Part shown: positions 17,887-18,419 of the stretch, in pieces
Position numbering within the stretch: position 1 is the first letter of the stretch
Layout: each line of letters starts with the position of its first letter
NCBI GenBank assembly: GCA_902794035.1
Contig: CADBFN010000001.1
Coordinates: forward strand, 21,599 to 85,598
Length of the DNA stretch: 64,000 nt
Reading direction: 5' to 3'
Source of the DNA: an uncultured bacterium
GTDB lineage: Bacteria; Cyanobacteriota; Vampirovibrionia; Gastranaerophilales; Gastranaerophilaceae
Notes under the pieces: generated by a model
What the model was told of the DNA's origin: nothing
Seen by the model: the letters and a program-made list of their open reading frames with translations, nothing else
The model's database searches: none
Made by a program: the position numbers and the translations under genes

Positions 17887-17976
17887 ATTTCCTCCTATAA
17901 AATTCCCTGACAATTATAATCTAATTTCCAAAAAATAGCAAATAAGCTAAAACAACATTTGTCATTCTGTCTTATT

Positions 17977-18120
17977 TACCCTGGATGCGATTGTCTTGGG
18001 TCGTTCGCAGTAAACGGCATTCCGCATTTTGCTTTTAATGGCTTTCAGCCATGAGCAAAATTTGCTCCAGCCTCTGCTCACTTCCCGCTCGAACGCAATT
18101 GGCTGTTCTCTCATGCTCAC
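17977..18120 (-). pseudogene. tRNA-Arg-derived pseudo-unit 1 with 96-nt T-loop insert
   Basis: Minus strand: GTGAGCATGAGAGAACAGCCAAT-TGCGTTCGA-[96 nt GC-rich]-AATCGCATCCAGGGTA. The 39 nt at 17954-17992 are identical to 18323-18361. Confidence 0.55.
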
Positions 18121-18128
18121 AATATAAA

Positions 18129-18158
18129 TAAAAAGGACGAGATTTACCCGTCCTTTTT
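18129..18158 (-). terminator. Hairpin + T-run after pseudo-unit 2
   Basis: Minus strand AAAAAGGACG-ggtaaatct-CGTCCTTTTTATTT. Confidence 0.45.
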
Positions 18159-18161
18159 ATT

Positions 18162-18301
18162 TACCCTGGATGCGATTTATCACTTCGCTCGCCTTCGATG
18201 TGACTACGCGTCTTGCTTTTTATGGCAGGTGTGCCAAAAGCAAGACCGCTACGCACTTGGCTCGCTCGTTCCGAACGCAAAACGGCGTTCTCATCGCTAT
18301 C
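18162..18301 (-). pseudogene. tRNA-Arg-derived pseudo-unit 2 with 94-nt T-loop insert
   Basis: Minus strand: GATAGCGATGAGAACGCCGTTT-TGCGTTCGG-[94 nt GC-rich, 11-bp stem GTCTTGCTTTT/AAAAGCAAGAC]-AATCGCATCCAGGGTA. Confidence 0.55.
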
Positions 18302-18308
18302 TTATTAC

Positions 18309-18346
18309 AAATAAGACAGAATAACATTTGTCATTCTGTCTTATTT
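18309..18346 (-). terminator. Hairpin directly after tRNA-Arg
   Basis: AAATAAGACAGAAT-10 nt-ATTCTGTCTTATTT (14-bp perfect arms). Confidence 0.55.
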
Positions 18347-18419
18347 ACCCTGGATGCGATTCGAACGCATGACCTACCGCTTAGAAGGCGGTTGCTCTAT
18401 CCAGCTGAGCTACCAAGGC
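18346..18419 (-). tRNA. tRNA-Arg (anticodon TCT)
   Basis: The rc folds as a 74-nt cloverleaf. Acceptor GCCTTGG/CCAGGGT (two G-U pairs). D arm GCTC-AGCTGGATA-GAGC. Anticodon arm ACCGC-CTTCTAA-GCGGT. Variable AGGTC. T arm ATGCG-TTCGAAT-CGCAT. Discriminator A. CCA is not encoded. Confidence 0.85.

Follow-up and report, generated by a model that had tools for sequence, protein, structure and literature searches.

Organization of the tRNA-Arg(UCU) locus

The DNA analyzed here (the window) is a stretch of 64,000 nt from contig CADBFN010000001.1 (positions 21,599 to 85,598) of the assembly GCA_902794035.1, derived from an uncultured bacterium of the Gastranaerophilaceae, and the elements in question are two tandem units that lie directly 3' of a tRNA-Arg(UCU) gene on its minus strand and each end in a copy of the 3' part of that tRNA. 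As summarized in Table 1, the order of the features in the tRNA sense was tRNA, AU-rich hairpin, unit 2, GC-stem terminator-like hairpin, unit 1, and a decayed copy of the first hairpin, and the units were spaced with a period of 184-185 nt. The gene at 18346-18419 (-) was the sole tRNA called by ARAGORN in the window. In the region 17700-18700, the Rfam tRNA model RF00005 matched only this gene at E<=10, and the units, in which it found no match, were not recognized as cloverleaves. The original prediction, made from the letters alone, of one real tRNA followed by units that are not tRNAs was thereby borne out. When the same region was compared with all Rfam families at E<=10, chance-level matches only (E 1-8) were obtained besides the tRNA, and no ribozyme, riboswitch, or small RNA (sRNA) family was found among them. 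At the Rfam gathering cut-offs, the tRNA was likewise the only match.

The 21-mer TTATTTACCCTGGATGCGATT was present exactly three times, at 17972, 18157, and 18341, as had been stated, and the number expected from 100 shuffles was zero. The repeated piece indeed corresponded to the 3' T-stem strand, the acceptor strand, the discriminator, and the trailer of the tRNA, each unit ending in the last 16 nt of the tRNA and five trailer bases (AAUAA). The reported identity of 17954-17992 with 18323-18361 was likewise reproduced, and the repeat after the last unit (D1) was 93% identical to 18308-18361. On the minus strand, TGCGTTCG was located at 18279-18272 and 18097-18090, so placed that both units have their T loop interrupted at the same position, again as predicted. 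The sequence inserted there was a folded GC-rich module (49-53% G+C, compared with 33.7% for the window); in unit 2, both the 11-bp stem GTCTTGCTTTT/AAAAGCAAGAC and the hairpin followed by a T-run (18125-18163) were found where they had been described. As for the lengths of the inserts, measured as the gaps from TGCGTTCG to AATCGCATCCAGGGTA, the value of 94 nt was correct and that of 96 nt had to be changed to 97 nt.

Table 1. Features of the tRNA-Arg(UCU) locus and the related element behind rpsI (positions in the window)
Feature	Position	Strand	Basis
Promoter of the tRNA-Arg operon: TTGCGT, 14 nt, extended -10 TGATAATAT	18440-18467	-	only pattern match at the locus
tRNA-Arg(UCU) gene, no encoded CCA	18346-18419	-	ARAGORN; Rfam RF00005, 66.1 bits
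AU-rich hairpin directly 3' of the tRNA, weak terminator-like	18309-18345	-	inverted repeat I2, 18-nt arms, 94% complementary
Unit 2 (proximal, type A), structured RNA unit of ~143 nt	18162-18304	-	covariance model R1, 101.3 bits; alignment; fold
Unit 2, inverted T-arm copy GAUAGCGAUGAGAACGC	18285-18301	-	
Unit 2, UGCGUUCG	18272-18279	-	
Unit 2, core, 94 nt	18178-18271	-	
Unit 2, tRNA 3' piece AAUCGCAUCCAGGGUA	18162-18177	-	
Intrinsic-terminator-like hairpin AAAAAGGACGGG..CUCGUCCUUUUU after unit 2	18125-18161	-	inverted repeat I4, 15-nt arms, 100% complementary, then T-run
Unit 1 (distal, type B), structured RNA unit of ~145 nt	17977-18121	-	R1, 137.1 bits
Unit 1, UGCGUUCG	18090-18097	-	
Unit 1, core, 97 nt	17993-18089	-	
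Unit 1, tRNA 3' piece AAUCGCAUCCAGGGUA	17977-17992	-	
Decayed copy of the tRNA's trailing hairpin, after unit 1	17940-17976	-	inverted repeat I5, 72% complementary
Core-only copy of the long-hairpin domain	48486-48582	-	R1, 44.9 bits, E about 2e-9, filters off

Occurrence of the units in related genomes

A search with the pattern TGCGTTCG, 80-110 nt, AATCGCATCCAGGGTA yielded 12 species genomes in GTDB and three metagenome contigs (loci and contigs are designated below by L numbers). In all 12 of the GTDB genomes and in two of the metagenome contigs, or 14 of the 15 loci, the units were situated directly 3' of tRNA-Arg(TCT), in arrays of one to four units with a period of 183-196 nt and with varying flanking genes. 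The source metagenome-assembled genomes were labelled Gastranaerophilales or Melainabacteria. Inspection of related genomes had been proposed as a check, and its outcome was that the units recur behind the same tRNA gene at 14 other loci, in numbers from one to four. The sole exception (L025) was an array without a tRNA adjoining an island with an integrase fragment; in this island (893-5713, array at 5933-6470), a Phage_integrase C-terminal fragment, a weak resolvase-like open reading frame (ORF), and three ORFs of unknown function were located upstream. A common sequence, AAGCCACATTTT..CCAAGTTCTGAACTCGWCAACTCTGGGGTAAAT, which resembles a diverged tRNA 3' piece, was also noticed before a unit in L021 (6570-6605) and L025 (5900-5945).

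Two core types recurred, namely type A, as in unit 2 of the window, and type B, as in unit 1. The covariance model R1, built from ten type-B units, gave scores of 59-153 bits over all units, those of type A scoring 84-108 bits and those of L019 and the N-masked L017 about 60, and it aligned the two types helix on helix. The description of the two inserts as unrelated in sequence was accordingly abandoned, both of them matching a model from other genomes' units (101 and 137 bits) with a helix-for-helix alignment and covarying helices. The view of the units as decayed pseudo-tRNA copies fared no better, since they are conserved in 15 genomes or contigs with compensatory changes and are therefore not simply decaying. 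R1 found three copies in total in the 64-kb window and, outside the arrays in about 130 kb of the other loci, one extra full unit (L021). Neither the core nor the tRNA piece was found in 2.9 million viral contigs (IMG/VR) or in plasmids (PLSDB), and a phage or plasmid origin was rejected on this ground. In addition, ORFs starting from the AUGAGA motif of the units were absent or two codons long in many of them, and neither the ATG nor the reading frame was conserved, indicating that the units are non-coding. A small protein like Escherichia coli Tpr, whose ORF starts from the same AUGAGAA, was rejected for the same reason.

Secondary structure and covariation

The units share a conserved fold, which consists of a closing helix P0 (GAUAGCGAU/AUCGCAUC), a hairpin P1 (GAACGC/GCGUUC), and the helices P2 to P4. 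P2 has a maximum of 11 pairs, two tandem G.A/A.G steps among them (GAGCGAGC opposite GCGAGCGA); in P3, AGAGGC faces GCC-G-UUU, and the helix contains an invariant G.U and a bulged G; a 3x3 loop presents GRA over GNA; and P4 is a hairpin of variable sequence. In a plain MAFFT alignment of ten units (A2), 85.6% of the cells were paired, compared with 28-41% in slid controls, and 11 pairs were changed on both sides, compared with 1-4 in the controls. The corresponding values for 26 distinct sequences with P0 included (A5) were 84.4% against 23-37% and 14 pairs against 3-6, in an alignment that was fitted to the model and is hence biased toward structure. For each of the two alignments, the observed covariation score was reached by 0 of 500 shuffles. 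Over the 26 sequences, P0 and P1 were paired in 87% and 96%, respectively, and both helices also formed in the minimum-free-energy folds. A different closing helix proposed by RNAalifold (UGYGA/UCGCA) was discarded, as fewer sequences fitted it than GAUAGCGAU/AUCGCAUC and E. coli lacks a counterpart of it.

With regard to the strand, the tandem G.A steps of P2 were replaced by Watson-Crick pairs in L014, L018, and L020. Since G.U pairs would read C.A on the opposite strand, these changes together with the invariant G.U in P3 point to the tRNA-sense strand as the one that folds.

The 5' segment of the units had been regarded as a D/anticodon-arm remnant (GAUAGCGAUGAGAACGCC). The reverse complement of the T arm and the acceptor start proved to be the better match than the sense D/anticodon region: the segment of L011, TGGAT-GCGATTCGAACGC, scored 12 against the reverse complement TGGATAGCGATGAGAACGC, with agreement at 16 of 18 aligned bases and a single 1-nt gap, and its best match on the sense strand scored 7. 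Being a reverse-complement copy of the T arm, the segment forms pairs with each of the two halves into which that arm is split. In the loop of this inverted copy, AUUCGAA is changed to AUGAGAA (UC -> GA). A hammerhead or other ribozyme, which the motif GAUGAGA might suggest, found no support in Rfam, and the motif is accounted for by complementarity to the T loop. In L016 (281-354), the T stem of the resident tRNA-Arg has changed in a compensatory manner (AAGCG/CGCUU) and the unit behind it retains GCG/CGCAU, with the ancestral CGCAU piece, along with its own clamp, implying that the pairing under selection is the one within the unit.

Variant units with a longer 5' part (GGUYUGAGAUUURAAYGCCCAAGGC..GCCUUGUAGYCGUUCGA) were observed in L013 (1462-1680) and L025 (5981-6138); they contain an extra stem nested in P1 and read AUUUGAA instead of AUGAGAA in the loop copy.

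Array dynamics and the possibility of integrase scars

Contigs encoding an identical neighbor protein of 94 amino acids (aa) were compared as strains of the window bacterium. Both units were present in L001 and L004, and unit 1 was missing from L002, L003, and L005 as an exact 185-bp block whose borders are the repeated tRNA piece; the hairpin at 18125-18161 was lost together with it. Copy number therefore changes exactly at the borders of the tRNA piece. In addition, L011 and L024 each carry two copies of one unit (identical in L011), the distal units are truncated or decayed in several arrays (L014, L018, L019, and L021_u2), and terminator types and unit types are freely combined across arrays. 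Recombination at the shared 16-21-nt tRNA piece, whether homologous or site-specific, would account for this growth, shrinkage, and shuffling. Four metagenome contigs (L007-L010) also break off upstream of the 94-aa gene, at a distance of about 98-103 nt, which corresponds to about 17985 in the window, indicating that assemblies break inside the repeat array; the array thus explains the breaks in metagenome assemblies at this locus in these gut bacteria.

Tyrosine integrases that target tRNAs duplicate a block that begins in the T loop and ends a few bases beyond the tRNA. As the repeated block here matches that extent, the 184-bp units could be serial integration/excision scars (attL/attR) of an integrase targeting the 3' end of tRNA-Arg, that is, minimal cassettes or island remains. 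The att repeats of P4-type tyrosine integrases and islands likewise consist of direct copies of the 3' portion of the tRNA, beginning with the T loop, and may form arrays, and some neighboring loci do carry island-like insertions at the tRNA-Arg site. Several loci are in line with this explanation. A core-less unit of 134 nt in L023 (7927-8060), which ends GTTCGAATCGCATCCAGGGTA, retains the whole T loop, and stands beside structured units, represents the tRNA end duplicated in the ordinary att-like manner; a near-identical terminator stands right after the last tRNA piece in L012, L013, L016, and L021, with the gene of a 243-aa protein adjoining in L012, L013, and L021; the array of L025 lies beside the Phage_integrase fragment and the weak resolvase match; and terminators and unit bodies are shuffled at the core. 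The units themselves, however, differ from att repeats in being gene-less 184-nt elements with no cargo between the repeats, in having the T-stem 5' strand duplicated as well, and in carrying a covarying RNA fold between the repeats. In the strains of the window, no integrase was seen within about 6 kb, and the earlier statement that the window lacks one stands for about 6 kb on either side of the locus (precomputed Pfam hits), the remaining window not having been scanned for integrases. Scars of this kind would leave the covarying fold, the inverted T-arm clamp, and the split T loop unexplained; the viral contigs and plasmids mentioned above contain neither the core nor the tRNA piece, and the RtT arrays of E. 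coli vary in the same way without involvement of an integrase. We thus regard integrase scars as a distinctly unlikely origin of the units.

A core-only copy behind rpsI

The third R1 copy in the window begins at the base after the stop codon of rpsI (48583-48585), is followed by a terminator hairpin (about 48441-48472), and has neither the tRNA piece nor the 5' clamp. Among ten contigs encoding an identical S9 protein, the element was present in seven and the site was empty in three, the sequence being CGTTAA/TCAATATACAAAAAGCGG at the empty site and CGTTAA/GCGGATTGCG...CCAAGAGCAAC/TAAAATATACAAAGCG at the filled one. From these borders, the core module starts with GCGG, ends with CCAAGA(C), and has the left flank CGTT(C/A)(G/A). 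The insert of the original prediction is a real, separable module, and this single case is too little to call it mobile.

These data bear on the leading idea of the original prediction, according to which the units are functionless wreckage, namely decayed copies of tRNA-Arg in tandem, with the T loop of every copy disrupted by a small mobile hairpin of about 95 nt that targets it. The discreteness of the core, its 97-nt copy after the rpsI stop with filled and empty sites beside identical S9, and the resemblance of the left flank in rpsI (CGTTAA) to that in the units (CGTTCG/CGTTCGA) would all fit a mobile hairpin, as the truncated or decayed distal units (L014, L018, L019, and L021_u2) would fit decay. 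Nevertheless, the part of the unit outside the core is an inverted T-arm copy that pairs both halves and not a remnant of the tRNA 5' part, the design is found again in E. coli, where another tRNA is copied, and compensatory changes have been conserved over 15 genomes or contigs. Moreover, a mobile element would have to be one of very low copy number (three in 64 kb, and one extra-array unit, L021, in about 130 kb), and no transposase was found beside any copy. Such wreckage is in our estimation an unlikely account of the units.

The core also has the form of a long imperfect palindrome, conserved in the arms and variable in the center, and its copy in the 3' untranslated region of rpsI, between the stop codon and the terminator, occupies the typical position of a REP. 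The structure could accordingly be that of REPIN/MITE-like selfish DNA palindromes, formed by DNA hairpins that a transposase recognizes and not by RNA. The likeness to REP/BIME/REPIN elements, which are GC-rich imperfect intergenic hairpins as well, is opposed by the strand-asymmetric pairing, in which G.U would become C.A on the other strand, by the very low copy number in the window and the other loci, by the orientation, which is fixed relative to the tRNA and the terminators, and by the tie to one tRNA. A non-exhaustive search of the loci showed neither RAYT nor TnpA. We consider selfish palindromes of this type very improbable here. Dispersed rtT-like elements have been reported in enterobacteria (PMC2965389). 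The infB-rbfA element of that report was tried as an rtT-like precedent for core-only copies and set aside, since the corresponding sequence (L038, 2256-2326) is an ordinary REP pair (Rfam naRNA4, 68 bits).

Transcription anatomy

The region that starts 150 nt ahead of the tRNA and runs through the whole array was scanned for promoters with the pattern TTGNNN, 13-16 nt, TGNTANNNT. Each of the 14 loci had a single extended -10 promoter, which lay 38-95 nt before the tRNA, and inside the arrays of these loci the pattern had no match. A hairpin with a U-run followed the tRNA and every unit. This arrangement suggests that transcripts started at the tRNA promoter read through into the units.

A conserved leader of about 65 nt (GAGGGA..ACCCCAC..CCCUCUGGAUCC) was observed between the promoter and tRNA-Arg in L011 (2380-2440) and L023 (7600-7665), and the window is without it. 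This leader may be another small structured element.

Comparison with RtT of E. coli

In the tyrT operon of E. coli, a 178-bp unit is repeated about three times, each copy containing the last 19 nt of tRNA-Tyr, and the RtT RNA is processed from the transcript. We know of no accepted function for the tyrT repeats or rtT RNA, which are usually regarded as an enterobacterial oddity. The tandem repeats behind tyrT were reportedly described by Egan and Landy in 1978, and also by Rossi et al. in 1981, and the processing of rtT RNA from them is said to go back to Bosl and Kersten in 1991. E. coli also has 3'ETS-leuZ, a short single trailer sRNA that arises as a by-product of transcription and processing of a tRNA operon. 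The units here would be tRNA-operon by-products like it; unlike them, it has no tRNA 3' copy and no inverted T arm and is not repeated. RtT is released from the tyrT transcript, and its role is unclear, with a possible link to the stringent response (PMC4986893; bioRxiv 10.1101/2024.07.17.603846). Rfam homologues of RtT are located beside Asn and Lys tRNA genes in Pasteurellaceae (PMC4986893).

The units of the window and RtT are laid out alike, in each case on the same strand and directly 3' of the tRNA: in E. coli K-12, the order is tyrT, RtT, tyrV, and then three RtT, and here tRNA-Arg(UCU) is followed by one to four units. The period is 178 nt for RtT and 183-196 nt here. The RtT unit reads GGGGAAGG-AUGAGAA-(C/G)CUUC-GACCA-AAGG-UUCGA-[67-nt core]-AAU-CCUUC-CCCCACC-A-CCA, and the unit here GAUAGCGAUGAGAACGC-[loop]-GCGUUCG(A)-[94-97-nt core]-AAUCGCAUCCAGGGUA. 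In both, the 3' piece begins at AAU of the T loop, the RtT units ending AAUCCUUCCCCCACCACCA and those here AAUCGCAUCCAGGGUA plus AAUAA; the T-stem 5' strand plus UUCGA stands upstream (AAGGUUCGA in RtT), and the T loop is thus split at the same point. The 5' segment of RtT, GGGGAAGGAUGAGAACCUUC, is identical at 19 of 22 positions to the reverse complement of tRNA-Tyr, and that of the units at 16 of 18 to the reverse complement of tRNA-Arg (L011). The UC -> GA change (AUUCGAA -> AUGAGAA) is common to the two, as is the outer fold in minimum-free-energy predictions, with a closing helix, GA, and the P1 hairpin. Copy number is variable in both, RtT occurring 1-10 times per genome in E. coli (median 3, with five in strain 7/2) and the units once or twice in near-identical strains. 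The hallmarks of an RtT-type element, that is, tandem units of about 180 nt, a copy of the tRNA 3' end from AAU on, and the closing helix, AUGAGAA, and P1 hairpin of the Rfam consensus, were all found at the locus. The system differs from RtT in its phylum, Melainabacteria and not Gammaproteobacteria; in its tRNA, Arg-UCU and not Tyr, without an encoded CCA; in the intrinsic terminator behind every unit; in the absence of a conserved Tpr-like ORF; and in having a core-only copy outside the tRNA operon.

On the basis of these features, we propose that the units are RtT-like trailer RNAs of the tRNA-Arg(UCU) operon, a reading that we hold to be probable, if well short of certain. Several observations weigh against it. 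The core forms one rod of about 95 nt here and several short hairpins in E. coli RtT, and P0 is weakened in unit 1 and its relatives by a variant of the 5' segment (GAGCAUGAGAGAAC). The RtT model RF00391, which gave 133-137 bits for the RtT units of E. coli, had no match at E<=10 in 17700-18700 of the window or in 5960-6340 of L025, so that its gathering cut-off of 45 bits was not reached by the units; conversely, R1 scored only 6.3 bits on E. coli RtT. In Smith-Waterman comparisons, the units and RtT scored within the range of shuffles. AUGAGAA is largely forced by complementarity to the universal T loop, and the likeness to RtT could be convergent. The hairpins behind the tRNA could end most transcripts, co-transcription and processing of the units are what we infer from their anatomy and the E. 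coli precedent, and the copy behind rpsI shows that the core can exist away from any tRNA context.

Sequence homology to RtT was rejected, as the pairwise alignment was no better than shuffles and neither covariance model detects the other family. The hints of common descent are thus reduced to the UC -> GA change and the short motifs GAGCG/CGAAGG. The units are built like RtT and, by this analogy, probably work like RtT; membership in RF00391 is not supported by the model matches. The sequences are compatible both with convergence and with very distant homology.

Proposed origin and role of the unit RNAs

Of the three options listed in the original prediction, the last, expressed small RNAs that present a tRNA 3' end, was the one best supported here, and an RtT-like trailer-RNA family in Melainabacteria is our best reading of the locus. 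Its conserved fold and its changes in copy number are direct observations, and expression and processing of the RNAs would proceed by analogy with RtT. Transcription from the single upstream promoter would continue past the weak hairpin behind the tRNA and into at least one cassette of about 184 nt, and every cassette would give an RNA of about 145 nt in four parts. The first would be the 5' inverted copy of the T arm and of the start of the acceptor 3' strand, with AUGAGAA in place of AUUCGAA in its loop; the second, the direct copy of the T-stem 5' strand with UUCG(A); the third, the long irregular hairpin P2-P3-P4 of about 95 nt with its tandem G.A steps, bulged G, and variable tip; and the fourth, the last 16 nt of the tRNA from AAU of the T loop on, closed by the terminator-like hairpin. 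The 5' segment would clamp the two split T-arm halves, the core would branch from the former T loop, and CAGGGUA would remain as a 3' tail. The 5' end of the unit RNA would fall near UGUGAUAG, and, judging from the anatomy and the E. coli precedent, its release would occur by tRNA-type 3' processing or by termination. The arrays themselves would grow, shrink, and shuffle through recombination between the identical tRNA pieces. Given that the T arm is present in the RNA as a copy and also as an anti-copy, our best guess is that the role of this RNA is tied to tRNA maturation or tRNA status.

The units would constitute a second, independently targeted example, in a distant phylum, of the same clamp-and-split-T-loop design with strong covariation. 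This recurrence argues that the design is selected or is made by a general mechanism, and the comparative data now available allow the parts that matter to be defined and provide a concrete recipe for searching other genomes. It is conceivable, and in our view rather unlikely, that RtT and the present units both belong to a widespread, unrecognized class of tRNA-operon RNAs across phyla. Each member would be retargeted to its own tRNA and would combine an inverted T-arm copy, in which UC-to-GA creates a tandem G.A junction, with a T loop interrupted at 57/58 and a structured core that can be exchanged. The function of such a class would be tied to the cognate tRNA, for example base pairing with unfolded tRNA, or the sensing or titration of a factor that binds or processes tRNA, and its core would be independently insertable, as the rpsI copy suggests.

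Neighboring genes

A 243-aa protein without a Pfam match is encoded at 16167-16898 (+) in the window and also in L012 (6465-7196), L013 (671-1399), and L021 (5754-6485). The paralogue in the three latter species is 52% identical to it and about 99% identical among them, and its gene stands with a constant terminator (AATTAAAAGGGACTAGT...) right behind the last tRNA 3' piece, resembling a small island at the end of the array. This protein was considered as a recombinase partner and was dropped, as it was found in the closest clade only. The window also contains a split rpoC, of which the beta'' part is an ORF of 1286 aa at 21130-24990 (-). We take a split rpoC to be a trait of cyanobacteria and their relatives, which agrees with the assignment of the related loci to Melainabacteria.

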